From an uncultured Verrucomicrobiota bacterium (GTDB lineage Bacteria > Verrucomicrobiota > Kiritimatiellia > CAJWTS01), in NCBI GenBank assembly GCA_913047795.1, contig CAJWTS010000001.1:22866-86865 (forward strand): a stretch of DNA of 64,000 nucleotides, read 5' to 3'. Within the stretch, counting starts at the first letter, position 1; every line of letters begins with the position of its first letter. A model generated the notes under the pieces. That model was not told where the DNA came from and searched no databases. It saw nothing but the letters and a program-made list of their open reading frames with translations. Below, one piece after another: positions 16,508-64,000 of this stretch. Position numbers and translations under genes: made by a program.

Positions 16508-19500
16508 TCAGGGCGCGAGTTCAACCCCGATCCGGTACATACGTAGCGCGGGCGCATTGCTGTCGATGAAGAAATCGTTGGAGCCGCTGCCCGGGATGTC
16601 GGTGTAGACGGGGTGGTTGGAGAACGGAATCGCGATGAGGTCATCGCTGAATTCGAGCGTATAGAATCGCCCGGTTGACGAATCGAATTGGATGGTGGCC
16701 GGGCTGTTGATCGTCAGGTCCTCGATGTTGAAGAAGCTGTTTGAACGCTGGGGATCCGTGTCCGCGATATACTCCTGCAGGTCGGTAAAGTCGTCGCCAT
16801 CCGCGTTTCCGTTCGCATTCGCAACCTTGGGGTCGAGATTATTGGCGATTTCCCAATCGTCCGGCATGCCGTCGTCGTCGTCGTCCGGGTCGTCGAAGTC
16901 GGGCCAGCCGTCGCCGTCGGTGTCCGGGATCGTGGTTGTTTCAGCGGTAAGGTTGTTAAGCAGATTCGTGTCGCTCTCCGCAGCGGTTACCGAGGCGAAG
17001 TTGGTTACGGTACCCACCGTTGAGGTCGCGACGTTGACGGCGACAACGACGGTGGTGATCGCCCCGGGGGCAAGCGGACCGAGCGGGCAGGTCACGACGC
17101 CCACGGATTCGGTGCAGCCGACGCTGCTGCCGGTGAACGAGAACGTCACGCCTGCGGGTAGCGAGTCGGTAACCACCAGTCCCGTTGCGATAGACGGGCC
17201 GATATTCGAGACCGTAATCGTGTAGGTGATGGCGTTGCCGTTGGTCAGTGGATCCTGCGAATCGCTCTTCTCGACGGCTAGGTCGACGAATGGAGCCGTG
17301 TCCGTGCAGCACGAAACTGCATCCTGTGCGACGCAGATCGAAACGTCGCGCGCGTCGCCACTGTCGTTGGGGTAGACATCGGCGATGTTGACGGTCCACG
17401 TGCCGTTCGGATCCTCCCCGTCGAAGGCGGACAACGCCTGGTCAGGGGTGAACGTGCCGCTGAACGGGCCCGTGTCGCCGATGGACTGGATGGAAGCGCC
17501 CCCGCCGTCGTCGTCCAGTGTTGCCTGGCAGAAATCCTCGCCACTCGAACCGGAGGTCCCGCTGCCGGGGCGATCCAACAACGTGACGGTCGTACTCTGG
17601 GGAGACGTCAGCGTAATAATGAGATCGCCGACCCAGGTATGATTGATGCCATTGTCCGTGCCCGTGCATGTTTCGCCGCCGATCTTGAAATCAAGATCGG
17701 TAATCGTGCCGCTCAGGTTGCTCACGACGATGCTGAGGTCCACGCCACTGACATTGTTGTCCGGGATCGCGACCGGAGGGCCGCTGTAGCTGAATTCCTG
17801 GGTCCCGCCCAGGGACCCGCCCAGCACAATGGGGAAATCGATGATTCCGAGATCCAGCGCGCCGTCTTGCAGCGAAAGCCGGGCAGTTACGACACTGCCG
17901 CAGGTGCCGGTGGGCGTAAACGTAAAGGTTTGTGCGACCTCGACCCCGGATGTGTCGACGATGCCGTAGGTCTGCGGGGCGCCTGGCAACGTGATGCCAC
18001 CGTACGTCAGCAGCGTGGCGACCAGGCCGGTGGTCGGCCGGGTCCCGGTATTACGCAACGAAAATGCTATCGCGACGGCTTCGTCCGGATCAGCCGCATT
18101 GTTCGTTGGTGTGCAGGTTTCCGCGACGAGTGTTGACGTGACAGCCTCGAGGATCGATGTGAAGGCCAGGACGTCCAGTGTCACCGATCGGCCCTGGCCG
18201 ACTTGCGATGTCAGGTTGCTGAAGTTCACCGTGTCGTTATGCGTGTCGACGCCGAGCCCATTGGCGATGTCATTGATACAGACGTTAACCGTTGTCGTGG
18301 CGCCGGCTGCCAGCGGTCCGCCGCCCGGCACAACGTCTACCCATGCCTGGCTGTTGCGTGCCGTCCAGGTGATCCCGCCGCCGCCGCTGTTGATTACGCG
18401 GTAGGGTAGACAGGTGGGGGCGAAAGGGCCGCCTTCGATGCCTGCGGACGACAATCCGGTGGTCGGTTCGATCAGCATCTCGTCGGTCAGCTCGATGGTG
18501 AAGTCCGCATCCGAGACATCGAAGAAGATGTTACCCGCGCCCTGGACTTTGACACGCGCCGTCCCCGCGTCGATATTGGGCAGGGTCACCGAATGCGTAC
18601 CGTCATTCGGCGTATTGGATGCGAGCACGATGTCGAAAGAGGCGCCACCGTTTGTTGACAGCAGTATGTTCACGTTAGCGGCGTTCACGGACCCGCCGGT
18701 TGTTCCGGCGACGTCCCAGGTCACGGTCTGGGAACCCGATAAGGTGACCGCCGTATTGGGCGCCGTCACGAGGAAGGGCCCCGTCACCGCGTCGACGGTC
18801 ACGACCATTTCGTCCATGTCGTAAGCGCCGCCGCCAGCGACATTGTCGCGTACCGTAACGCGGAAGTTCAACGTGCGGCTCAGCGTGGGCAAGCGTTCGC
18901 CGGTCGGCGTCGTGTTGTTGAGCAGGTCCTGCAGGCGCGGAAACGTACGCACCGGGTTTGTGGTCGGTGTCCACGAGCGAAACAGGGGGCTGGTCGTGTT
19001 TTGCGCGCCGGTCAGGGCCTGTTGCGGGCCCAAATCCATTTCTTCCCATGCGAAGGTCAGGACATCGGGGTCGGGATCGGCACCGGACGCGGTGAGTTCG
19101 AACGGGGTGCCCTGCGGAATCGTGAAATCGGCGCCGGCATCCGCGGTGGGAACGTTGTTGCCGGTAGCTGTGTTGGACGAGCAGGTGCCGCCTCCGAAGG
19201 TGACATAGGTGCTGATCTCATCGAGGCTGATAAAGTGGAAATAGGGATCCGAGTTGGACTGCAGATTGTCGGCACCGCAGATGCCGGCGTAAGCCAGGAT
19301 CGTGGATCCGCTGCCGGGTTCGTAGGCTGTCGGCGACGATCGCCCGCTGCAGCCGGCGCCGTTGAAACAATGGTTGGCATTGAACTGATGGCCTATCTCG
19401 TGTGCCACGTAGTCCACATAGAAAGGATCTCCAATGGGAGCCGCCTGTCCGGTTGCACCCTGCGCCTTGCTGGCCGCGTTGCAGACAAGCCCGGGCGCGT

Positions 19501-38744: not shown

Positions 38745-40277
38745 CTATCCGGTGTGGGCGATCGTTCCGCCCGTGTCATCGTCAGACGCGTGGGCCAGCA
38801 GCCGGTCGCTTTCCTCGCGCAGCCCCTCCAGGCCCAGGTCACGCGGGCCGGCGCCGGCCCGCATCATCGCTTCGACGACGTCCTTCTTGCGAACGTCGTC
38901 GGGTGCTCGCAGCAGGGCGTAGTGATCCTGCTGCCCGGCGATGGCGGCCACGAATCCGGCGGCGACCAACTCGTCGAGCACCTCGTTGAGCAGACGTACC
39001 GGTATCTGGCGCGCCTGTGCGTATTCAGCGGCGTCGAATGCGCCGTTCCGGTCTTGTACCGTGCGGATGGCTTCGGAGATGATCGCCATTGCCAGCAGAA
39101 CGCGCGATTCGGTGCTCGCCCGCCGCGCCGTCTGTTCCATGCGATAGGTCGCGCAATTCTGCACCGCGAACGCGATTTCGGTCCCCAGCAGGATGATCTG
39201 CCAGCTGACCAGGACCCAGAGCAGCAGAATCGGGAGGATCGCGAAACTGCCGTAGACCGCACCCTGACGTGCCACGCCGACCTGTAGCCGGATACAGATC
39301 CAGATCCAGGCGATAAACAGGATCGCGGCGGCGGTGCCGCCGCAGAACGCCGGCGCGAACCGTACGCGCGTATTGGGCATGATCATCATGAAGATCGCGA
39401 ACGATAGCGCGACCAACATCAGCATGGCGATGTGCTTCAGGATGTCGGACTCGAGCACGCTCAAGACGGATCCGGCCACGCCGGCCGGCAGGAATTTGTA
39501 TGCCAGCTCCACCGCGGGCAGCGATGACGAGAGAATGATCAGGATGGGCGTCAGGACAAGCACGCCGAGATAGTCCGTGAACTTTCGAAAGATGTTGCGC
39601 TGCGTGGCCACGCCCCAGACGCGATTGAACGAGAGCTCAACACGGCCCAGGCCGGCGATCACGCTCCATATCAGGAGCACAAGGCCAACGCCGCTCAGGG
39701 CGCCGAAGCTGACGTTGTTGACGTACCCGAAAATCTCGTCGATGACGGCTTCCACTTGCGTGACGATATCCTCCACATCGTTCGCCGCCGGCGGGTCTGC
39801 GTCACCCGCGGCCGGATCAGGGCCCGTCACCAGGCTCTCGGCCGCGTTCGTGATGGCTTGCGCGTCGACGACGAGGGGTGGCGAATTCAAGGCCGTCGCG
39901 TTCGTTTGGGGCGCGGTCGCCTCATCCGTCTCGATCGTATCGACCTGATTGGTTACCGCGGGTGCGTCGAACTGCCGAAGCTGTTCACGGACGAAGGTCC
40001 GGATCTGTTTCTCGACGACTTCCCCGGCCCCGAACCCCTTGGCGATAGATAACGACAGCGCCAGTACCGGCACCAGGGACATCAAGGTGTAGAAGGTCAG
40101 TGCCGATGCGTGCAGGGGACATTGGTCGTCGCGGAAACCGCGCAGAACGAGGTGCACAACGCGGATCGTGCTGACGCCGAACCGGCGCAGGCCTGATAGC
40201 GAACGCAGTTCGACGTCCCAGACGCCTTCCGTGAGAAAGCGCCTGACGCGCGAGACTCTTGACTCATCGTCCGGCAT
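38745..40277 (-). CDS. YihY/BrkB (virulence factor BrkB) family membrane protein
   Basis: LTFYTLMSLVPVLALSLSIA and multiple TM helices are typical of YihY. Start chosen at MPDDESRV (40277). The upstream Arg/Ser/Thr-rich extension was rejected. Confidence 0.75.
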   Translation of the reverse strand: MPDDESRVSRVRRFLTEGVWDVELRSLSGLRRFGVSTIRVVHLVLRGFRDDQCPLHASALTFYTLMSLVPVLALSLSIAKGFGAGEVVEKQIRTFVREQLRQFDAPAVTNQVDTIETDEATAPQTNATALNSPPLVVDAQAITNAAESLVTGPDPAAGDADPPAANDVEDIVTQVEAVIDEIFGYVNNVSFGALSGVGLVLLIWSVIAGLGRVELSFNRVWGVATQRNIFRKFTDYLGVLVLTPILIILSSSLPAVELAYKFLPAGVAGSVLSVLESDILKHIAMLMLVALSFAIFMMIMPNTRVRFAPAFCGGTAAAILFIAWIWICIRLQVGVARQGAVYGSFAILPILLLWVLVSWQIILLGTEIAFAVQNCATYRMEQTARRASTESRVLLAMAIISEAIRTVQDRNGAFDAAEYAQARQIPVRLLNEVLDELVAAGFVAAIAGQQDHYALLRAPDDVRKKDVVEAMMRAGAGPRDLGLEGLREESDRLLAHASDDDTGGTIAHTG

Positions 40278-41274
40278 ACATTTTCTCGTAGTAGGCGACG
40301 TATTCACCGCTACGCGTGTGGGCGACCCAGTCCGGGTTCGCCCGGTACCAGTCGATCGTGTCCTGGATCGCGGCGTCGAAGGTGTGCGCGGGCTGCCAGC
40401 CCAGTTCCTGTTCGATCCGCGAGGAATCGATCGCATAACGACGGTCGTGGCCGGGTCGGTCCGTTACAAAGGTGATCAGGCTTTCAGGCTTATCGAGCAG
40501 CCGCAGGATCGTCTTCACGATCTCGAGGTTTGGAACGTCGTAACTGCCGCCGATGTTGTACACCTCGCCCGCGATGCCATTGCGCATGACGCAGTCGATG
40601 CCCGCACAGTGGTCCTCGACGTAAATCCAGTCGCGAATTTGCATGCCGTCGCCGTACACCGGCAAGTCCTTGTCCTCGAGCGCGTTGGCGATGATCAGCG
40701 GGATCAGTTTTTCGGGGAACTGGTAGGGGCCGAAGTTGTTCGAGCATCGCGTGATGACCGCGTCGAGGCCGTGACAGCGAACCGCCGCGCGGACCAGGCA
40801 GTCGCCGCCCGCCTTGCTTGCCGAATACGGGTTGTTGGGTTGCAGCGGTGTCGTCTCCGTGAAGCGTCCGTCCGGCCCCAGCGTACCGTAGACCTCGTCC
40901 GTGGAGACCTGAACCAGACGTGGCACCGCGTGTTGCTGCACCGCGTCGATCAACGCCTGCGTGCCCGCTACGTTGGTGCTTACAAATGGGCCGGCGTCGA
41001 CCAGGCTGCGGTCGACATGTGTCTCGGCAGCGAAATTTAGAACGGCGTCGAACGGGCTCGCGTCGAAAATCGCATCCAGGTCGGCCCGTGCGGTGATATC
41101 ACCCCGCACGAAGGCATATCGCTTTTCGTCTTCGATGCCGGCCAGGTTCTCGAGGTTGCCGGCATACGTCAGCGCGTCGAAATTGACGATTTCGACGTCG
41201 TCGTAACGCTTCAGCATGAAACGTATGAAATTACTGCCGATGAAACCGGCACCACCTGTTACGAGTAATTTCAT
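40264..41274 (-). CDS. rfbB: dTDP-glucose 4,6-dehydratase
   Basis: MKLLVTGGAGFIGSNF, catalytic YSASKAGGD, and DYVFDG-type blocks of RmlB. Confidence 0.9.
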   Translation of the reverse strand: MKLLVTGGAGFIGSNFIRFMLKRYDDVEIVNFDALTYAGNLENLAGIEDEKRYAFVRGDITARADLDAIFDASPFDAVLNFAAETHVDRSLVDAGPFVSTNVAGTQALIDAVQQHAVPRLVQVSTDEVYGTLGPDGRFTETTPLQPNNPYSASKAGGDCLVRAAVRCHGLDAVITRCSNNFGPYQFPEKLIPLIIANALEDKDLPVYGDGMQIRDWIYVEDHCAGIDCVMRNGIAGEVYNIGGSYDVPNLEIVKTILRLLDKPESLITFVTDRPGHDRRYAIDSSRIEQELGWQPAHTFDAAIQDTIDWYRANPDWVAHTRSGEYVAYYEKMYAGR

Positions 41275-41326: not shown

Positions 41327-42181
41327 TCAGGCATCGATACGACTATGTGCTTCCTCAAGGTAAGCGTCGAGACCCTCGCGCCAGGAGGGTAAACAATGTC
41401 CGGTCAAACTTTCATAAAGGCTCTTATCCAGCACCGCGTTGAGCGGGCGCCGCGCGGGAGTCGGGTACGCGGACGTGGGCACCGCCTCGATCGGCCACTC
41501 CGAACCGGTGCGGGCCGCTATGGCACAGGCCAATTCGTACCATGAACAACTGCCGGATGCCGATGCATGAACCACGCCGGAACATTCCACGGCGATCAGG
41601 TGCTGCAGGGCAACCGCGAGATGTCCGGTATAGGTCGGACAGGTGGATTGATCTTCAATCACACGCACAGCTTCATCCGCCCGGCCGCAGGCCGCCATGA
41701 TGGCGCGCACGAAATGGCGACCGTGGACCCCGAAAAGCGCCTGGGTACGCACCACCGTGGCCGTCGGCAAAGCATCCAAAACCGCTATTTCGCCGTCAAG
41801 CTTGTCGGTGCCGTAAGCGCTCAGCGGGCCGGTCGCATCGTTCTCGCGGTAGGGGCGATCGCTTTCGCCGTCAAACACGTAGTCCGAGCCGATGTGGAAC
41901 ATACGGATGCCCTGCTCTGCGCAACATGCGGCAACCGTACCGGCGCCGGCGACGTTCACGGCCTGCGAGATTTCGCGTTCCGTCTCGGCATCATCGACAC
42001 GGGTGAAGGCGGCACAGTTGATGACGATATCCGCGCCGGCAATCTGCCGGGCGACGGATGCCCTGTCGCGAACGTCGCAGGTCGTCGAGGCCAATGCGCG
42101 CACTTCGATGCCCGCCGCCGCCAGCACGCGCGCCAGATCCCGGCCGAGCATCCCTGTTCCCCCTGGGATCGTGACGATCAT
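41327..42181 (-). CDS. rfbD: dTDP-4-dehydrorhamnose reductase
   Basis: MIVTIPGGTGMLGRDL Rossmann start. INCAAFTRVDDAE and YGTDKLDGE are RmlD-like. Confidence 0.85.
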   Translation of the reverse strand: MIVTIPGGTGMLGRDLARVLAAAGIEVRALASTTCDVRDRASVARQIAGADIVINCAAFTRVDDAETEREISQAVNVAGAGTVAACCAEQGIRMFHIGSDYVFDGESDRPYRENDATGPLSAYGTDKLDGEIAVLDALPTATVVRTQALFGVHGRHFVRAIMAACGRADEAVRVIEDQSTCPTYTGHLAVALQHLIAVECSGVVHASASGSCSWYELACAIAARTGSEWPIEAVPTSAYPTPARRPLNAVLDKSLYESLTGHCLPSWREGLDAYLEEAHSRIDA

Positions 42182-52778: not shown

Positions 52779-53811
52779 AACATTGACCCAGACGCCCGGC
52801 ATTGCCGGACGCGAGCAGCGCATGCGAGACCTGATCCTGCGCGAGACCAGGGGGCTTTTTGACGAGACCCGTGTGGACCCGATCGGCAACCTGATTGCGG
52901 TTCGCCACGCCCGCCCGCCGAAGAGCACGGCAAAAAAGAAAAAACCGGTCAAGATCATGCTCGCCGCACACATGGACCAGATTGGATTCATGGTGCGTCA
53001 TGTCGACGACGATGGATTTTTGTGGCTCCAGGCGGTCGGCGGATTTGATACGCGCAATTTGTTTGCGCGCATGGTGACCGTTTGCACGGAGGACGGCGAC
53101 ATTCCGGGGGTACTGAACCCGGGCGGCAAGCCGATCCACATCGCCTCGGCGGAGGACCGAAAGAAGGTCCCGGACCTTGACGCCTTCTTCGTGGATCTGG
53201 GCCTGACCGGGCGACAGGTGAGCAAGCGGGTGCGCATCGGAGACATGGTCGTCATCCGCGCACCGTTCACACGGGTCGGCCGCATGATCACGGCGCAGGC
53301 GTTGGACAACCGGATTGCCTGCTGGGTAGCCATTCGCGCGATCGAGCAATTGAAGGCGCACCATTGCGAGATTCACTGTGCGTTTACGTCGCAGGAAGAG
53401 GTCGGTTGCCGCGGCGCCGGCCCGGCGGCGGACTCGATCCAGCCCGATATTGCGATCGCGCTGGATACAACGCTCTGTTGCGACACGCCCGGTGTGCCAT
53501 CGACCGACTCCGTTACGCGCCAGGGAGAGGGCGCCGGCTTGATGGTGATGGACTCCTCGACGATCAATGATGAGGAGCTGCTGCGGACGTTTGAATCGCT
53601 TGCCGCCAAACGAAAAATCAAGGCCCAGCGCACGATTCTGCCGCGCGGCGGGACCGACGCTTCGACGATCCAGCGCAAGGCCGCCGGCCATCGCGTGATG
53701 ACCGTTGTTTGTCCCGTGCGCTACATTCACACCGTAACGGAAACGACACACCTCGACGATCTCCACGCCTGTCGGGATCTCGTGGCGGCCTATCTCGCCT
53801 CGGTGCGGTGA
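52765..53811 (+). CDS. M42 family metallopeptidase (FrvX/YsdC-like aminopeptidase/endoglucanase family)
   Basis: MKLLETLTQTPGIAGRE opener typical of M42. Metal-ligand blocks AHMDQIGF, DNR and EEVG. GGAGAA RBS. Overlaps the kinase stop by 14 nt. Confidence 0.75.
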   Translation: MKLLETLTQTPGIAGREQRMRDLILRETRGLFDETRVDPIGNLIAVRHARPPKSTAKKKKPVKIMLAAHMDQIGFMVRHVDDDGFLWLQAVGGFDTRNLFARMVTVCTEDGDIPGVLNPGGKPIHIASAEDRKKVPDLDAFFVDLGLTGRQVSKRVRIGDMVVIRAPFTRVGRMITAQALDNRIACWVAIRAIEQLKAHHCEIHCAFTSQEEVGCRGAGPAADSIQPDIAIALDTTLCCDTPGVPSTDSVTRQGEGAGLMVMDSSTINDEELLRTFESLAAKRKIKAQRTILPRGGTDASTIQRKAAGHRVMTVVCPVRYIHTVTETTHLDDLHACRDLVAAYLASVR

Positions 53812-55409
53812 GCAACGGCCTGCTCCAGCGCCTCGGGGGTGAGACCCGGTTCGACGTCGTGGTCGTCGGCGGTGGAATCAACGGCGCCGGCATCGTGCGT
53901 GACGCCGCGATCCGCGGTTACAAAGTCCTGTTGGTCGAGGCGCATGATTTCGCTTCGGGCACCAGTTCGCGATCCAGCAAATTGATTCACGGCGGACTGC
54001 GATACCTGGAGCACGGCGAATTCCGCCTGGTTTTTGAATCCTGTCGGGAACGCTTCGTGCTCGCGCAACAACTGCCGCATCTCGTGCGCCCGATCCGGAT
54101 TACGATCCCGGTCTACACGGGTGCGCGTCGCAACGCCCTGTTGATCCGTACCGGGGTTGCCCTCTATGACCTGCTCGCCGGAACACGGGGCCTCGGGCGC
54201 GGACGTTCGGTCAATCGTCAGGATCTGATCGACGAGCGTCTCGTCGCGGACGGACTCACGGGCGGCGTATCTTTTGTCGATTGCCAGATGGACGACGCTC
54301 GGGTCTGTCTCGAAACGCTGATCGATGCCGAGGGCCGTTCCGCGCGATGCTTGAACTACGTGCGCGCCGACGCCCTGGCGGAGACGGACACCGGGGAGCG
54401 GACCCTTTCGCTCCGGGACGAGCGCTCCGGCGATCGCCAGGACGTCACCGCGCGAGTTGTGGTTAATGCCACGGGGCCCTGGTCCGATATCACGGCGCAG
54501 TCTCTGACAGGCACGAGGACCGGCCGTCTGCAGTTGAATCGCGGATGTCACATCGTTACTCGCCGACCGATCTCCCGGCGCGCCCTGCTGTTGCCCTCGC
54601 GCGACGACCGTCGCGTGTTCTTTGTCTTGCCGTTTCGGTCAACGACGTTGATTGGAACAACGGAATCGGCCGTGGATTCGGCCGAGGACTTTGACCGGGT
54701 ATCCGCGGGCGAGATCGACTATCTGCTCCGCAATGTCAATGCGTACATGCCGGACCTCGGCATGACGCGGGACGACATCGCATTTGCGTTTGCCGGCACG
54801 CGGCCGCTGGCCTCCGGCCGCAGTCGTGGCGGCCTGTCCGAGGTCTCGCGCCGACACCAGGTGGTCGAGCAGGGCAATTTGCTGACCGTCATCGGGGGCA
54901 AGTATTCGACCTTTCGCGCCATCGCGGCCGATGCCGTCAACCGGATTGCGCGCCGACTCTCGGCCGAAGCGCCTGGTTGCCGCACGCTGACGACGCCGTT
55001 TGCCTGCGCCCGTTTTCGCGACTTCGAAACGTATGCATCGCATACCGTTGCGTCATACGTTGCCGGGGGCATGGCGGAAGGTTCGGCGCGGCACATCGTG
55101 CAGACCTATGGCAGTCGTCACGTGGAGATCGAGCGCCGCCTGGCGCGCGCCGGCCTCGCGGAGCCGCTGGCGGAAGGCGTGCCGCATCTGGCCGCGGAAC
55201 TGGTAACGGCCTTCGATGTTGAGCATGCCGCGACGCTGGAAGACTTCATGATTCGGCGCTCGGGACTGGCCTACCATCCCGATAACATGCGCCTTGCCGG
55301 TGCGGTCGCGGAGAAGGCAATTGCGCTCGGTCTGTTGGGAGAGGCCGCGGCCGAAGAACAGCTCGACGAGTTTCGCGAGACAGTCGAGGGGCCGCTCCGG
55401 CGCGCCTGA
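53808..55409 (+). CDS. FAD-dependent glycerol-3-phosphate dehydrogenase-like oxidoreductase
   Basis: GTG start overlapping the upstream stop (GTGA). FDVVVVGGGINGAGIVRDAAIRGYKVLLVE dinucleotide fold and GlpD-like blocks (SKLIHGGLRYLE). Confidence 0.75.
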   Translation: MSNGLLQRLGGETRFDVVVVGGGINGAGIVRDAAIRGYKVLLVEAHDFASGTSSRSSKLIHGGLRYLEHGEFRLVFESCRERFVLAQQLPHLVRPIRITIPVYTGARRNALLIRTGVALYDLLAGTRGLGRGRSVNRQDLIDERLVADGLTGGVSFVDCQMDDARVCLETLIDAEGRSARCLNYVRADALAETDTGERTLSLRDERSGDRQDVTARVVVNATGPWSDITAQSLTGTRTGRLQLNRGCHIVTRRPISRRALLLPSRDDRRVFFVLPFRSTTLIGTTESAVDSAEDFDRVSAGEIDYLLRNVNAYMPDLGMTRDDIAFAFAGTRPLASGRSRGGLSEVSRRHQVVEQGNLLTVIGGKYSTFRAIAADAVNRIARRLSAEAPGCRTLTTPFACARFRDFETYASHTVASYVAGGMAEGSARHIVQTYGSRHVEIERRLARAGLAEPLAEGVPHLAAELVTAFDVEHAATLEDFMIRRSGLAYHPDNMRLAGAVAEKAIALGLLGEAAAEEQLDEFRETVEGPLRRA

Positions 55410-55416
55410 CACGCCG

Positions 55417-56526
55417 TCAGTTGTAGAAGGCCGTGATCATCTCGACCACGTAGTTCGCCTGGTCGCCGCTGAGTTCAGGGTAGACAGGGATCGCCACGGT
55501 TTCACGTGCCGCCCGTTCGCTTTCCGGGAAATCACCTTCGCCGTGCCCGAGGCCGGCAAAACATTCCTGCCGATGCAGCGGTACCGGGTAATAGATCTCG
55601 CAACCGATTCCGGCGTCCTTGAGATGGGCCATCAGTTCGTCGCGACGGTCGGCGCGCAGGATATACTGGTTGTAGATGTGGCGATCGTCCGTTTCGGCCG
55701 GCAGGGTGACCTGCCCGTCGAGTCCGGACTGCGCAAAGAGCGCGGCGTAACGGCGGGCGTTCTGTTGCCGGGCTTCTGTCCAGGCGTCGAGATGACGCAG
55801 CTTGACCGCGACCACGGCGGCCTGGATCGCGTCCAGTCGAAAATTGCCACCGATGACGTGGTGATAGTACTTGGGCTTTCCGCCGTGTACGCGCAGAACG
55901 CGGAGACGCTCTGCCCGTTCGGCGTCGTTTGTTACGACCATGCCACCGTCGCCTGCACCGCCCAGGTTTTTGGAGGGGAAAAAGGACAGGCACCCGTAGT
56001 CACCGATCGATCCAGCGCGCCGCCCGTTGTATTCGGCACCGATCGCCTGCGCGGCGTCCTCGATGACGACCAGGTCATGATCGCGCGCCACCTGCATGAC
56101 CGGGTCCATGTCGGCCATGCGTCCATAGAGATGGACCGGTATGATCGCCTTGCAGCGTGGCGTGACGGCGGCGGCGAGAGCCGTGACATCCATGTTGAAA
56201 CTCTCCGGATCGATATCGACGAAAACCGGCGTTGCGCCGAGGCGCGTGACGGCTCCGGCCGTTGCAAAGAAGGTGTACGGCGTCGTGATCACCTCGTCTC
56301 CGGCGCCGATCCCCTCGGCCATCAACGCAACAAGGAGCGCATCGGAACCCGAGGAGACGCCGACCGCATGATCGCAGTTCGAATAGGCGGCCACGGCGGT
56401 TTCGCATTCTACGACGACCGGGCCGAGGATGAAGTGTTGCGACGCGAAGACGGTGGCGACGGCAGCGTCCACTTCCTCCTTGATGGAGCGGTATTGCGCG
56501 CGGAGATCGAGAAGCGGAACGTCCAT
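55417..56526 (-). CDS. DegT/DnrJ/EryC1/StrS family sugar aminotransferase (PLP-dependent)
   Basis: Fold-type I sugar aminotransferase blocks: [22 protein letters not shown], and the lysine region SFFPSKNLG. Confidence 0.85.
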
Positions 56527-56530
56527 GGGC

Positions 56531-58138
56531 TTAAGCGTCCAGGGGCGCGTCCTCGTTTTTGTCGAGGCAGCGCAGTTCGCCTGAGGGGGACTCCTCGTAG
56601 CGCCAGCCGCTCTCGACGCAGGTCATCGTGCCGTCCGCATCGGGAACCAGTCGATGTCCGTGCCGGCTGACCCAGCCGATTTGCTTCGCCGGAACGCCGA
56701 CCATGAACCCGTAATCGGGCACATCATCACGCACGACGGCACCGGCTCCGATCATTGCGAATCGTCCGATCGTGATGCCGCAGATGATGGTGCAGTTTGC
56801 GCCTAACGTCGCGCCGCGCCGCACGAGTGTGGGGCGCACTTCATCCATGCGCGGAATCTCGCTGCGCGGATTGTAGACGTTGGTGAAGACCATCGAGGGT
56901 CCGCAAAAGACGTGGTCCTCCAGCGTGACGCCCTTGTAGACGGATACGTTGTTCTGGATCTTGACGCCCTTGCCGATTGCGACGTCCGGGCCGATCACGC
57001 AGTTCTGCCCGATCTTACAATGTGTGCCCAGTGTTGAGCCACGCAGGACGTGCGTGAAATGCCAAATCGTGGTGTCCGCCCCGATCTCGGCACCGTCGTC
57101 GATCACGGCCGTTGCATGCGTCGTGTAGTCAGTCGCAAGATCCGCCGCGATGCCCCGCTCGCGTTCGGCACGCAGTGACCGTTCGCTTTGATCGAGGACG
57201 CGCAGCACGCGCAGGCCCTCCTCGCCGTCCGTCCGCGGCTTGGCGCGTGTTCGGATACAGTCGAGGAAGTGGCGGCATTCGGCATTCAGGGGTTCCTCCA
57301 TTTCGAACGGGATGGGAATGGCATCGGCCTTGTTGGCGACCGGCATACGGTTCTGCCACTCCACGGCGTGCGGGTAGCGCAGCAGCTTGTCCGAGTCGGC
57401 GACATCATTGAAGGAAATCATCTGTTTATCGCCCACGATAACCAGGCGCTGCTCCTTGTGCGGATGCAGCCAGGAGACGAAGATGTGGGCCCGCACACCG
57501 TTAGCGAAGGACAACAGGCTCACGGTCGAGTCCGCGATCTTGTCGTCCAGGTAATACCCGCCCTGGGAGCGCACGGATTCCGGCATCTCGCCGAGCAGTC
57601 CGAGGATGACGGAGATATCGTGCGGCGCAAACGACCACAGGATGTTCTCCTCGTGGCGAATTTTCCCGAAGTTCAGCCGATTGGAATAGATGTATTGCAC
57701 CCGCCCGAGCTCGCCGCTGTCGACGAATTCCTTCAGCTTGAGCACAGCGGGGTGATACCAGAGGATGTGGCCGACCATCAGGATTCGATCGGTCTGCGCC
57801 GCAAGGTCAACCAGTTGCTGCCCCCGCGCGACGGAGAGACAAAGCGGCTTTTCGACAAACACGTCCTTGCCCGCTTCAAGCGCGCGCTCGACGACGTCGG
57901 CGTGCGTTTCGGTGGGCGTGGCGATCACCACGCCCGCGACGTCCGGGTCGGCGAATACGGCATCCGGATCCGTCGTGGTGGTTACGCCCGCCAGGCCCTG
58001 CGTGACCTCTTTCAGCGTATCGGGATTCGCATCGCAGACGGATCGCAGGGCGGCCAGTTCGTGGAAGTTGCGGACGTGGTTGCGCCCCCAATATCCCGCG
58101 CCGATAACACTGATGCTGGGAGTCTGTTCGGGGGACAT
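56531..58138 (-). CDS. Bifunctional protein: Gfo/Idh/MocA NAD-binding oxidoreductase (N-terminal) fused to a left-handed beta-helix hexapeptide acyltransferase (C-terminal)
   Basis: N-terminus [17 protein letters not shown]...EKPL (Gfo/Idh/MocA). The C-terminal ~190 aa carry repeated [LIV]G-x-x-x-x hexapeptides ([13 protein letters not shown]...[25 protein letters not shown]...[13 protein letters not shown]). Confidence 0.8.
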
Positions 58139-58281
58139 GTTCGGCCGCTCAAGCTGCGTTAATAAAAACCATCTGAACAGAGCCGGAAGTTGATGTCAAG
58201 CTGCCCTCGGCGGGTCGCGCCGCTTTACCCTTTCGCGAGGGTGATGGTTGATTCATACTGTGATTCAAGATCAGAAAGTCC

Positions 58282-59094
58282 ATGTCCAGCCTATCATTTA
58301 CTTTAACACGCGTGTGGGGCATTCCCATCAAGTTGCACGTCACGTTGATTCTGTTGCTGCCGCTGTTTTCGCATCGTTTTGGACTGACCATCGAGGCCGC
58401 GATTATCTGCGCCGGTGTCATGGCGAGCATCGTGCTGCATGAACTTGGGCATTCGCTGGTCGCGATTCGAAAGGGTTGCCGTGTGCGCGAGATTCTGTTG
58501 ACCCCCATCGGCGGCGTTGCACAGATGGAGCGCATCCCGTCGCGCCCGCGAGACGAGTTCCTCATGGCGATCGCGGGACCCCTCGTCAGCCTGGCGCTCT
58601 TCTTCATGCTCGATTTTGCGGGGGATCACATGCGGCCGACCTTCATTCTTCAGGGCGTGCCGTTTAACGTGCTGACGTTTCTGGGCATGGTCAACCTGGG
58701 TCTCGTGCTCTTCAATATGATTCCCGCCTTTCCGATGGATGGTGGGCGCATCTTCCGGGCGCTGCTCGCGTCGCGCGTGGGTAGATTGAAGGCCACCTTG
58801 GTCGCGTCGCGCCTGGGGCGGGTCTTCGCTGTATTATTCGGAATTCTCGGCCTGTACTGGATGCTGGAGTCCGGCCAGGGGCTTGTTCTTATCTTCATCG
58901 CTTTCTTTATATTCATGGCGGCCGGCAGCGAGTATCGTTCCGTGCGCGCGCAGGAGGAGCTTCAGCAGGCCGTCTATTCCTCGTGGCACCGCGAGCCTCC
59001 GCCGCGCCGCGCCGCTGGAGATGACGACGTCGTTATCAGTCCGCCGCCTTTTCGAGAGGGACCGGACTCGCGGTCCGACATCGAACGTATGTGA
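58282..59094 (+). CDS. Site-2 protease family (M50) zinc metalloprotease
   Basis: HELGH HExxH motif within a TM helix and the LFNMIPAFPMDGG (LDG-like) motif. Multi-pass membrane protein. Confidence 0.75.
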   Translation: MSSLSFTLTRVWGIPIKLHVTLILLLPLFSHRFGLTIEAAIICAGVMASIVLHELGHSLVAIRKGCRVREILLTPIGGVAQMERIPSRPRDEFLMAIAGPLVSLALFFMLDFAGDHMRPTFILQGVPFNVLTFLGMVNLGLVLFNMIPAFPMDGGRIFRALLASRVGRLKATLVASRLGRVFAVLFGILGLYWMLESGQGLVLIFIAFFIFMAAGSEYRSVRAQEELQQAVYSSWHREPPPRRAAGDDDVVISPPPFREGPDSRSDIERM

Positions 59095-62467: not shown

Positions 62468-63547
62468 TCAGTCGTTGAGGCTAACAACTTGTCCGGTGCG
62501 ATACGCTTCATCGGCGGCGAGAACGATCCGCAGGCTGTTGATCGCGTCGGCCATGTGCTGCGCTAAATCATGGTCCTCCCGGACCGCGCGAATGAAATAG
62601 GCCTGTTCGCGGTCGCATAGCGCCTGGTGGTCCGGTTCATCCACCGTGTCGATCACCTCATCCGCGTGCGCGTACTCGCCGGACGAGGTGCACGCGCTAC
62701 GGTGGACGCGTAGCGCGTTGGTAACCGTGTGGGAGTTGATATCGGAGGAGCCCCCCACGGCCACGTCTGTCTTGGCGACCATGCTGACACAGCCCCGGGG
62801 TCCGACGACATCCTTCACAAAGAACGCCTCCTGGCTCATCATCGGGCCCCAGCCGGCTTCGTACCAGCCGCAGGAGCCATCATCGAAGGTGACGTGTAGG
62901 TGGCCGTAGTTGTACATGCCCTCGACAAGTTCGTCAGAGAGGCGCGCGCCGATTGCCCCGACACGGATGGGCTTCGCACCGGTCATCTGGCACATCACGT
63001 CCACATAGTGCACGCCGCAGTCGACAATGGGCGACTGGGTCTCCATCAGGCGCTTGTGCGCGGCCCATTCCGCGCCGGTGCTCTGTTGATTCAGGCTCAT
63101 GCGCATGACGAGCGGTTTGCCGAGCGCGCGGGCATGCTCGATGAAGGTGATCCACGACGGATGGTGGCGCAGAATGTAGCCGACCACGAGTTTGCGCGCC
63201 TGCCGCTGTGCGGTGGCGACCACCTGCTTCGCCTGCGCAACCGAAAGCGCCATTGGTTTCTCGACAAACACATGTGCGCCGGCGTCCAGTGACCGAATGG
63301 CATACTCGGCGTGCGTCGCGGTGTGCGTGTTGATCGAGACGGCGTCCGGACGGGTCGCATCGAGTGCCGCGCCAAATTCGTCGAACGTCGGCCTGCCACC
63401 GAGTTCGTTCGACAGCGCGTCGCGGGTATCCGGCGAGCGGCTCACGAGGCCGACGATCTCGACGTCGTGCATGCGCGCGTATGCGCGCGCATGCGAAGCG
63501 CCCATCGTGCCGCACCCGACGACCAGAATTCTCAACTTCGCGCTCAT
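62468..63547 (-). CDS. Gfo/Idh/MocA family oxidoreductase
   Basis: Start at MSAKLRILVVGCGTMGASHARA (Rossmann fold). EKP motif (HVFVEKPMA). Confidence 0.75.
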   Translation of the reverse strand: MSAKLRILVVGCGTMGASHARAYARMHDVEIVGLVSRSPDTRDALSNELGGRPTFDEFGAALDATRPDAVSINTHTATHAEYAIRSLDAGAHVFVEKPMALSVAQAKQVVATAQRQARKLVVGYILRHHPSWITFIEHARALGKPLVMRMSLNQQSTGAEWAAHKRLMETQSPIVDCGVHYVDVMCQMTGAKPIRVGAIGARLSDELVEGMYNYGHLHVTFDDGSCGWYEAGWGPMMSQEAFFVKDVVGPRGCVSMVAKTDVAVGGSSDINSHTVTNALRVHRSACTSSGEYAHADEVIDTVDEPDHQALCDREQAYFIRAVREDHDLAQHMADAINSLRIVLAADEAYRTGQVVSLND

Positions 63548-63666
63548 GCGTGGTGCGAGACCGTGCCTCAAGGGATTAAACTCACCGCGTGCGTAGCGGC
63601 GACAGGGCAGTTTAGAGTCGCAATGCAACACCTATCATGTATGATCCGCAGCTGCCAATATTGAAT

Positions 63667-64000
63667 ATGAAAGTTCTTGTTACAGGCGGTGCCGGCTTTG
63701 TCGGAAGTCACGCGGCGGAGCACTACGCCAACGCGGGAGACGACGTGGTCGTCTATGATAATCTTTCGCGTGCAAAGCTGCTGCAGCAAAACGATACCAA
63801 TGCACGACACAACTGGGAATACCTGTCCGCGCGCAAAGAAATCGCCATGGTTGAAGGCGATGTTCGCGATTACGACTTGCTCAAGCCGTACGTGGCGGAT
63901 GCCGATGTGATCCTGCACACGGCGGGCCAGACCGCCGTGACAACTTCGGTGACGGACCCGGAGCCCGATTTCATGGTCAACGCACTGGGCACGTTCAACG
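63667..64000 (+). CDS. NAD-dependent epimerase/dehydratase (SDR), 3' partial at the window edge
   Basis: MKVLVTGGAGFVGSHAAEHY Rossmann start. The frame is open to the end of the window. Confidence 0.7.
   Translation, partial: MKVLVTGGAGFVGSHAAEHYANAGDDVVVYDNLSRAKLLQQNDTNARHNWEYLSARKEIAMVEGDVRDYDLLKPYVADADVILHTAGQTAVTTSVTDPEPDFMVNALGTFN

Follow-up and report, generated by a model that had tools for sequence, protein, structure and literature searches.

In a 64-kb stretch of contig CAJWTS010000001.1 from an uncultured Verrucomicrobiota bacterium (the window hereafter meaning this whole stretch), a gene for a dehydrogenase of the Gfo/Idh/MocA family joined to a sugar N-acetyltransferase is followed by a gene for a DegT-family aminotransferase. 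We analyzed the two genes as a candidate module for the synthesis of a uridine diphosphate (UDP)-linked diacetamido sugar. The open reading frames (ORFs), which an earlier note on this DNA had placed 4 nt apart at 56531-58138 (535 aa) and 55417-56526, were confirmed by the ORF list and by the junction sequence. The interpretation of their products as a fused oxidoreductase and N-acetyltransferase and a DegT protein was supported by Pfam matches with E-values far past chance. The features of the locus are:

56531..58138, minus strand: fused gene, 535-aa bifunctional dehydrogenase and N-acetyltransferase, stop codon included (ORF, ATG start, Pfam)
57146..58138, minus strand: predicted N-terminal Gfo/Idh/MocA sugar 3-dehydrogenase domain, residues 1-331 (Pfam, NCBIfam, PDB matches, Foldseek)
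57125..57145, minus strand: interdomain linker, residues ~332-338, after a long helix at residues 305-331 (family alignment; predicted local distance difference test, pLDDT)
56534..57124, minus strand: C-terminal WlbB/WbpD-type left-handed beta-helix N-acetyltransferase domain, residues 339-535, with a beta-rich C-terminal tail (3MQG, Hexapep)
56527..56530, minus strand: 4-nt spacer GCCC separating the fused gene's stop codon from the aminotransferase ATG (sequence)
55417..56526, minus strand: gene for a DegT-family aminotransferase dependent on pyridoxal phosphate (PLP), 369 aa, a predicted sugar 3-aminotransferase (ORF, ATG start, Pfam)
58139..58281, no strand: intergenic stretch of 143 bp that separates the fused gene from a divergently oriented M50 peptidase gene, presumed to hold the promoter (ORF layout)

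The junction of the two genes reads ...GACGCT TAA GCCC ATG GAC..., and as the spacer is only 4 nt, co-transcription is implied, the two genes apparently forming a small operon. The fused gene is divergent from the M50 peptidase gene, and the promoter probably lies within 58139..58281; a scan of positions 55000-58700 for promoters and terminators yielded nothing over the shuffled expectation and no match to the sigma-70 consensus. At its other end, the DegT gene is convergent with a glycerol-3-phosphate-dehydrogenase-like gene (53709-55409), their stop codons being 7 nt apart (55409-55417), and no terminator-like hairpin over the shuffled expectation was found between or near these stop codons. 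The DNA is 62-64% GC, and the GC content of third codon positions (GC3) is 0.79 in the frame of the fused gene and 0.75 in that of the DegT gene. Since GC3 is high in these minus-strand frames, the long plus-strand ORFs at 55294-56670 and 57188-58162 are probably non-coding antisense frames.

In the ACETYLTRANSFERASE half of the fused protein, residues 339-514 match chain residues 5-182 of WlbB from Bordetella petrii (3MQG/3MQH) with an E-value of 5e-69. The catalytic core is aligned without gaps, and the blastp identity is 60% over 178 aa. The functional WbpD orthologues of P. aeruginosa and T. thermophilus are identical to each other at the same level, 60% (PMC10622841). Pfam Hexapep is found in three stretches of the 535-aa protein from residue 349 onwards (E 4e-19), together with Hexapep_2. 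Weaker PDB matches include 4MZU (E 6e-34), the 165-aa N-acetyltransferases 7S43 and 7S3U, and QdtC. The asparagine N420, part of an FTNVYNPR motif, aligns with the asparagine of the same motif in WlbB and is invariant in 69 family homologues; H341, H360, and H363 are likewise invariant.

We take N420 to be the equivalent of WlbB Asn84, assuming a 2-residue tag offset in the PDB chain. WlbB itself is reportedly described, in the paper on its structure, as working without a protein base, with Asn84. The same has been proposed for QdtC, where Asn159 would orient the amine and the CoA sulfur would accept the proton; mutation of the histidine equivalent to PglD His125, and of other candidates, merely reduced activity (PMC2943079). 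The absence of an active-site histidine, suggested in the earlier note as grounds for rejecting the acetyltransferase, is therefore not a valid test for this class, since QdtC-type enzymes use no protein base (PMC2943079). By its fold, full-length similarity and conserved asparagine, the acetyltransferase half is predicted to be a WlbB/WbpD-type (QdtC-like) sugar 3-N-acetyltransferase. No WbpB- or WlbB-specific NCBIfam model was matched by the 535-aa protein. The notion that the C-terminal domain resembles free-standing WlbB more closely than it does other fused proteins was dropped, as it is 60% identical to WlbB versus a median of 65% to the fused homologues.

Past the beta-helix, 115 of the 120 best fused homologues (see below) have four cysteines in a zinc-ribbon-like arrangement (CxC...CxxC) at query positions 491, 493, 507, and 510. 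At these positions, within the tail (residues ~489-535; 56534-56670), the residues are S-H-C-S in the window protein and S-H-C-T in Bordetella petrii WlbB. Because S-H-C-S replaces the four cysteines, the putative metal site seems to have been lost in the window lineage.

The dehydrogenase half has the two-domain Gfo/Idh/MocA fold with the EKP lysine. Pfam places GFO_IDH_MocA (PF01408) at residues 9-124 (E 7e-26), GFO_IDH_MocA_C3 (PF22725) at 133-241, and GFO_IDH_MocA_C (PF02894) at 136-321, and the motifs, Rossmann G13-x-G15-x-x-G18, EKP with K97, and H173-D174, are invariant in the 69 homologues. The best PDB match is the uncharacterised 3C1A (E 9e-32), and the next is GnnA (7BVJ, E 1e-23), the UDP-N-acetylglucosamine (UDP-GlcNAc) 3-dehydrogenase of Acidithiobacillus ferrooxidans, which on these comparisons is the closest characterised relative. 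When the N-terminal domain of the AlphaFold2 model was compared by Foldseek with the GnnA structures (7BVJ/7BVK), the template modelling (TM) score was 0.87-0.90 and the root-mean-square deviation 2.3-3.4 Å, at 26% identity. The archaeal UDP-GlcNAc 3-dehydrogenase model NF040723 is the top NCBIfam model for this half, with 163 bits against a cut-off of 450.

WlbA (3Q2K) is more distant (E 1.3e-11, 20% identity, TM 0.72-0.79, Foldseek rank 39). It is the sole WlbA structure among the 60 best PDB matches of the dehydrogenase half, and the WbpB structures 3O9Z and 3OA2 are not among them. The WbpB-type protein of a canonical Wbp cluster from Phycisphaerae (locus L015) matches 3O9Z with E 1.6e-113 and 3OA2 with E 2.8e-109, and is merely 32% identical to the window dehydrogenase domain over 69 aa. 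Orthology with WbpB/WlbA is ruled out by the 3Q2K E-value and by the position of 3O9Z and 3OA2 outside the best 60. The dehydrogenase half thus looks like a distinct, GnnA-like Gfo/Idh/MocA lineage and a probable non-orthologous replacement of WbpB. The AlphaFold2 model was used solely for the fold search with this domain, where pLDDT is mostly >90; it is <50 for residues 333-345 in the linker zone, and the family alignment shows no conservation of the linker. In a metagenome-assembled genome (MAG) of Desulfurivibrionaceae, an additional unfused gene for a dehydrogenase of this type, 58% identical to the N-terminal domain of the window protein, lies directly upstream of the fused gene (L001, 4290-5258).

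In the 369-aa aminotransferase, Pfam DegT_DnrJ_EryC1 (PF01041) covers residues 14-364 (E 2.7e-120). K186, in an SFFPSK motif, aligns with the lysine of the same motif in WbpE, presumably Lys185. The best PDB matches are 7B0D (3e-104), which is named only as a transaminase, 2OGA (4e-93), which we take to be the C3-aminotransferase DesV, QdtB (8e-88), and WbpE (1e-82). All four outrank the C4 enzymes (perosamine synthase, ArnB, PseC-like), and the C4-type NCBIfam equivalog models are all below cut-off. Both QdtB (PMC2943079) and WbpE (PMC10622841) aminate 3-keto sugars. The protein is also 58% identical to the DegT protein of the Phycisphaerae cluster. By these similarities it is predicted to belong to the C3-specific sugar aminotransferases, with WbpE, QdtB, and, presumably, DesV. 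The earlier note had considered either a 3-acetamido-3-deoxy or a 4-acetamido sugar. The former reading held on every test that was run, while the latter is without support, as the characterised relatives (GnnA, WlbA, QdtB, WbpE, and WbpD) act at C3.

The fusion is genuine. An assembly, frameshift, or gene-calling error joining two genes, which the earlier note had named as a possible frameshift artefact, is effectively refuted as an explanation. Such an error is conceivable, as in three Blastocatellia MAGs (L003, L005, and L013) the two genes share a reading frame, with just one stop codon between them where the window protein has its linker, so that one base error could mimic a fusion. However, independent marine assemblies (two ENA/TARA, one JGI metagenome, and a 109-kb NCBI contig) contain the identical 535-aa protein on five or more contigs, one member of this cluster bearing a TARA mesopelagic sample label. 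The neighbours on these contigs are also the same, with genes for phosphoglucose isomerase (PGI), a SprT-like protein, and the M50 peptidase on one side; on the other are the glycerol-3-phosphate-dehydrogenase-like gene and an M42 peptidase gene. Moreover, the reading frame is unbroken through a linker of the length typical of the family, and the 120 best homologues, coming from many studies and phyla, are all fused.

These 120 proteins, the best of at least 8000 candidates scored in a word-indexed search, contain both domains, are 514-695 aa long, and are 55-65% identical to the window protein, except for one 99% near-copy. Their sources include Nitrospira, Abditibacteriaceae, Omnitrophota, and many metagenomic bacteria. 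HMMER was also run exhaustively against 1.84 billion cluster representatives (50% identity) and yielded 3155 of them at E <= 1e-30; of the top 150, at least 38 were aligned across both domains at once, with identities as low as 32-37%. Full-length fused homologues number in the thousands and come from many phyla, and by these counts the fusion is among the commonest architectures for this enzyme pair and very common in environmental bacteria. The same fusion in other genomes, which the earlier note wanted sought, is hence not unusual.

The dehydrogenase and the acetyltransferase are encoded by neighbouring but separate genes in Blastocatellia and Chloracidobacterium, and fusion or fission of this pair has evidently happened easily. 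There are also triple fusions in two domain orders: dehydrogenase, acetyltransferase, DegT in P0140 (892 aa), and DegT, dehydrogenase, acetyltransferase in P0181 (910 aa). The gene for P0140 (locus L035, 369-3047) is complete, and its contig was seen in two samples. No description or assay of the fusion was found in the full-text literature that was searched.

To characterize the genomic context, we compared ten fused-gene loci from several phyla (the window, L001, L029, L032, L033, L034, L036, L037, L038, and L039). A DegT gene is directly downstream of the fused gene in six of them (L001, L029, L036, L037, L039, and the window), with a spacing from a 4-nt overlap to ~40 nt, and one gene away in L032. 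The unfused cluster of Phycisphaerae has the order WbpB-type dehydrogenase, WlbB-like acetyltransferase, DegT, with a UDP-sugar 6-dehydrogenase gene 1.7 kb further. The window pair is probably the same module, with a dehydrogenase of another lineage joined to the acetyltransferase.

A WbpA-like 6-dehydrogenase gene was found within 6-10 kb in none of the ten fused contexts, although it could lie elsewhere in the genome. None was found in the 64-kb window, or in the six acidobacterial loci where the pair is unfused and the 6-kb flanks are complete. L015 and L023, both with WbpB-type dehydrogenases, do carry such a gene, as does L018. The lack of nearby WbpA-like genes is suggestive of UDP-GlcNAc as the substrate. 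AsnB-like amidotransferase genes, of the type that amidates uronic acids (as WbpS, PMC7468200), occur in five of the ten fused contexts, and Epimerase_2 genes occur in two. In Nitrospira-like and Abditibacteria genomes, the fused gene is part of typical clusters for O-antigen or polysaccharide that also encode Wzy, flippases, and glycosyltransferases. In three Nitrospira-like clusters (L029, L033, and L039), genes for a NusG-like protein and an HTH_24 regulator precede the fused gene, which suggests operon-specific antitermination of the polysaccharide cluster.

In the Wbp pathway, a UDP-2-acetamido sugar undergoes 3-oxidation, 3-transamination, and 3-N-acetylation (PMC10622841). We consider it likely that the two window genes make a UDP-2,3-diacetamido-2,3-dideoxy-hexose in the same way, with the fused protein responsible for the first and third steps and the DegT protein for the second. 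The N-terminal domain would oxidise C3 of the UDP-2-acetamido sugar, UDP-GlcNAc or UDP-N-acetylglucosaminuronic acid (UDP-GlcNAcA), with NAD+. The DegT protein, with PLP on K186, would convert the 3-keto sugar to the 3-amino sugar. The WlbB-type beta-helix domain would then acetylate the 3-amine with acetyl-CoA, probably without a base as in QdtC and WlbB, with N420 orienting the amine. The benefit of the fusion may be a 1:1 ratio and the proximity of the first and third steps. Irreversible acetylation could then pull the unfavourable oxidation and the reversible transamination forward. Glycosyltransferases from other parts of the genome presumably use the product for a surface glycan. Between the two substrates, we lean slightly towards UDP-GlcNAc.

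Several observations weigh against this assignment or limit it. The dehydrogenase half is under every curated family cut-off, and the second-best NCBIfam model is inositol 2-dehydrogenase, with 130 bits. Because of these low scores, C3 regiochemistry and a UDP-sugar substrate are deduced from the genomic context and from the nearest neighbours. The beta-helix domain is poorly modelled by AlphaFold2 as a monomer (pLDDT 45-60), and therefore we make no structural claim on the interdomain arrangement. In three of the ten contexts (L033, L034, and L038), the DegT gene is displaced or absent within 10 kb, and the acidobacterial unfused pairs have no DegT gene within 6 kb. No enzymology for any member of the fused family was found in the searched literature. 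Finally, the signals for C6 conflict, as the acetyltransferase and the DegT protein resemble enzymes acting on uronates, and the dehydrogenase resembles enzymes acting on UDP-GlcNAc.

This conflict bears on the closest alternative, the canonical Wbp route on a uronate, which departs from the preferred reading solely in the C6 state of the substrate. Here, a UDP-GlcNAc 6-dehydrogenase encoded elsewhere would provide UDP-GlcNAcA, from which the fused protein and the DegT protein would make UDP-2,3-diacetamido-2,3-dideoxy-glucuronate (UDP-GlcNAc3NAcA), maybe 2-epimerised or amidated later. B. petrii WlbB, with which the acetyltransferase half shares 60% identity, acts on UDP-2-acetamido-3-amino-2,3-dideoxy-glucuronate (UDP-GlcNAc3NA; pathway in PMC10622841), and JGI names the family as the N-acetyltransferase of this very compound. 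The closeness of the window DegT (58%) to that of L015, a cluster holding both WbpB-type and WbpA-like genes, and the AsnB-like and Epimerase_2 genes in some of the contexts point in the same direction. Conversely, the dehydrogenase half lacks orthology with WbpB/WlbA, the characterised proteins closest to it take UDP-GlcNAc, and WbpA-like genes are missing from the vicinity of the ten fused genes and of the six unfused acidobacterial pairs. We regard the uronate route as a serious contender, if with somewhat less than an even chance.

A role in lipid A synthesis is far less probable, and we consider it very unlikely. In this scenario, the dehydrogenase and the DegT protein, as in the GnnA/GnnB system, would make UDP-2-acetamido-3-amino-2,3-dideoxy-glucose (UDP-GlcNAc3N) for a 2,3-diamino-glucose backbone, and the beta-helix would be an acyltransferase or regulatory. 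GnnA is indeed the closest characterised relative of the dehydrogenase half, the pair stands alone in the window, apart from any O-antigen cluster, and the beta-helix repeats have weak matches to the LpxA and LpxD models. However, these matches reach just 50-65 bits over few repeats, far under the cut-offs, whereas the match to WlbB is full-length (E 5e-69, 60% identity). Furthermore, other phyla carry the fused gene in O-antigen or polysaccharide clusters, and acetylation of N3 would block lipid A acylation.

The synthesis of a diacetamido sugar, our preferred reading, could be extended to the whole fused family as a second, widespread route to UDP-2,3-diacetamido sugars. It would start from UDP-GlcNAc with a GnnA-like dehydrogenase and rely on an assembly of mixed symmetry, with a dimeric dehydrogenase and a trimeric beta-helix, that recruits the aminotransferase and channels the labile 3-keto intermediate. 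The arrangement would be convergent with ArnA/ArnB, and the rare triple fusions would be its extreme form. We consider this extension less likely than not.

The module can be compared with several known systems. The earlier note had invoked the logic of WbpB/WbpE/WbpD, and this stands for the chemistry, the acetyltransferase, and the DegT protein, but not for the dehydrogenase, which is of the GnnA-like lineage and not WbpB/WlbA. The proposed order of reactions is that of WbpB/WbpE/WbpD (WlbA/WlbC/WlbB) in the pathway to UDP-2,3-diacetamido-2,3-dideoxy-mannuronic acid (UDP-ManNAc3NAcA) of Pseudomonas aeruginosa and Bordetella. The acetyltransferase half is a clear WlbB/WbpD homologue, the DegT protein is close to WbpE (E 1e-82), and the gene order of dehydrogenase, acetyltransferase, and DegT is that of the unfused canonical cluster in L015. 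Unlike in the Wbp system, the dehydrogenase comes from another Gfo/Idh/MocA lineage and is covalently fused to the acetyltransferase, there are no WbpA or WbpI genes nearby in the window, and the substrate may be UDP-GlcNAc. By contrast, WbpB/WlbA act on UDP-GlcNAcA, and some members re-oxidise NADH via alpha-ketoglutarate (PMC10622841).

The N-terminal domain resembles GnnA (E 1e-23) and the NF040723 family, its best NCBIfam model, but it is only 26% identical to GnnA and scores 163 bits where NF040723 requires 450; GnnA itself is a stand-alone protein. It is partnered with the DegT aminotransferase GnnB, and the product amine of that pathway is fatty-acylated for lipid A, not acetylated.

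In the L-Ara4N (4-amino-4-deoxy-L-arabinose) modification of lipid A by ArnA/ArnB, as in the window, one bifunctional protein brackets a separate DegT-family aminotransferase, and ArnB (1MDO) is homologous to the window DegT (E 1.7e-45). ArnA consists of a decarboxylating dehydrogenase of SDR type (short-chain dehydrogenase/reductase) and a formyltransferase that uses N10-formyltetrahydrofolate, in the opposite domain order, and it acts at C4 of a pentose. Its dehydrogenase domain works before ArnB and its formyltransferase domain after, and channelling has been proposed, although not demonstrated (PMC12650200). The 535-aa protein has no SDR or formyltransferase match in Pfam or PDB; it is not homologous to ArnA, and the resemblance is in pathway logic only.

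A weaker precedent is 4MZU, which is named only 'WxcM-like protein' in the PDB match; we take it to be FdtD of Shewanella denitrificans, a 3,4-ketoisomerase/N-acetyltransferase. Its beta-helix N-acetyltransferase domain is homologous to the C-terminal half of the window protein (E 6e-34). The ketoisomerase domain of FdtD makes a 3-keto sugar, which is then aminated by a separate aminotransferase, following the same logic as the fused protein. If 4MZU is FdtD, it differs from the window protein in that the partner domain is a cupin ketoisomerase rather than a dehydrogenase, and the substrates are dTDP-6-deoxy sugars.

The chemistry and each of the enzyme classes were already known, and the fusion is abundant in databases yet apparently uncharacterised. 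The window gene is an ordinary member of a common fused family, and probably represents an uncharacterised variant of the Wbp pathway. JGI annotation names only the uronate N-acetyltransferase, and NCBI annotation only the Gfo/Idh/MocA oxidoreductase. Should our assignment be correct, each of these automated labels gets half of the protein wrong throughout this very large family. The family would then also offer a compact tool of two proteins for making UDP-GlcNAc3NAc(A) by chemo-enzymatic synthesis. It would be the second natural case, after ArnA/ArnB, of fusing the steps that flank an aminotransferase, and could help to test channelling versus mere stoichiometry as the reason for such fusions. 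For this marine bacterium of the Planctomycetes-Verrucomicrobia-Chlamydiae (PVC) group, it means that a surface glycan probably contains a 2,3-diacetamido sugar, and nothing more.

Other sugar-related genes to which the earlier note had pointed do exist in the window:

40264-41274, minus strand: RfbB-like 4,6-dehydratase-type SDR
41327-42181, minus strand: RmlD-like (rfbD-like) protein
25156-25959, plus strand: SDR epimerase/dehydratase
63667-64000, plus strand: N-terminus of an SDR epimerase/dehydratase with a GGAGFVG motif, running off the window end

However, they are scattered among housekeeping genes and provide no evidence on the type of glycan, for which an elaborate one had been suggested. 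Among the genes around them are those for enolase, a UvrD-type helicase, PGI, galactokinase, rhamnose isomerase, sulfatase, DUF1501, and DUF4159. The enolase has its best named matches, at 73-76% identity, in MAGs of Verrucomicrobia, Kiritimatiellae, and Lentisphaerae, which together with the TARA label marks the organism as a marine member of the PVC superphylum. The 64-kb window yielded no glycosyltransferase, flippase, polymerase, 6-dehydrogenase, or 2-epimerase, and, as it lacks the first three of these, the window is silent on which glycan is made.

A second Gfo/Idh/MocA oxidoreductase gene (387 aa; 62468-63631, minus strand) is divergent from the SDR gene at 63667 (plus strand), and the two may be another sugar-modifying pair. 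The region 20628-25959, with three genes for xylose-isomerase-like TIM-barrel proteins, a class II aldolase gene, a gene of the fatty-acid-desaturase family, and the SDR gene, looks like a cluster for sugar or inositol-type conversion, separate from the fused-gene module. A 563-aa ORF (38745-40436, minus strand) has a BrkB-like membrane domain and a weak, below-cut-off C-terminal match to an Rrf2-like helix-turn-helix; since it runs with its 5' part into the end of the RfbB-like ORF, its true start is probably later. Further, positions 16508-20581 on the minus strand encode a predicted 1357-aa protein with a reprolysin-like metalloprotease, a proprotein-convertase P-domain, and DUF11.

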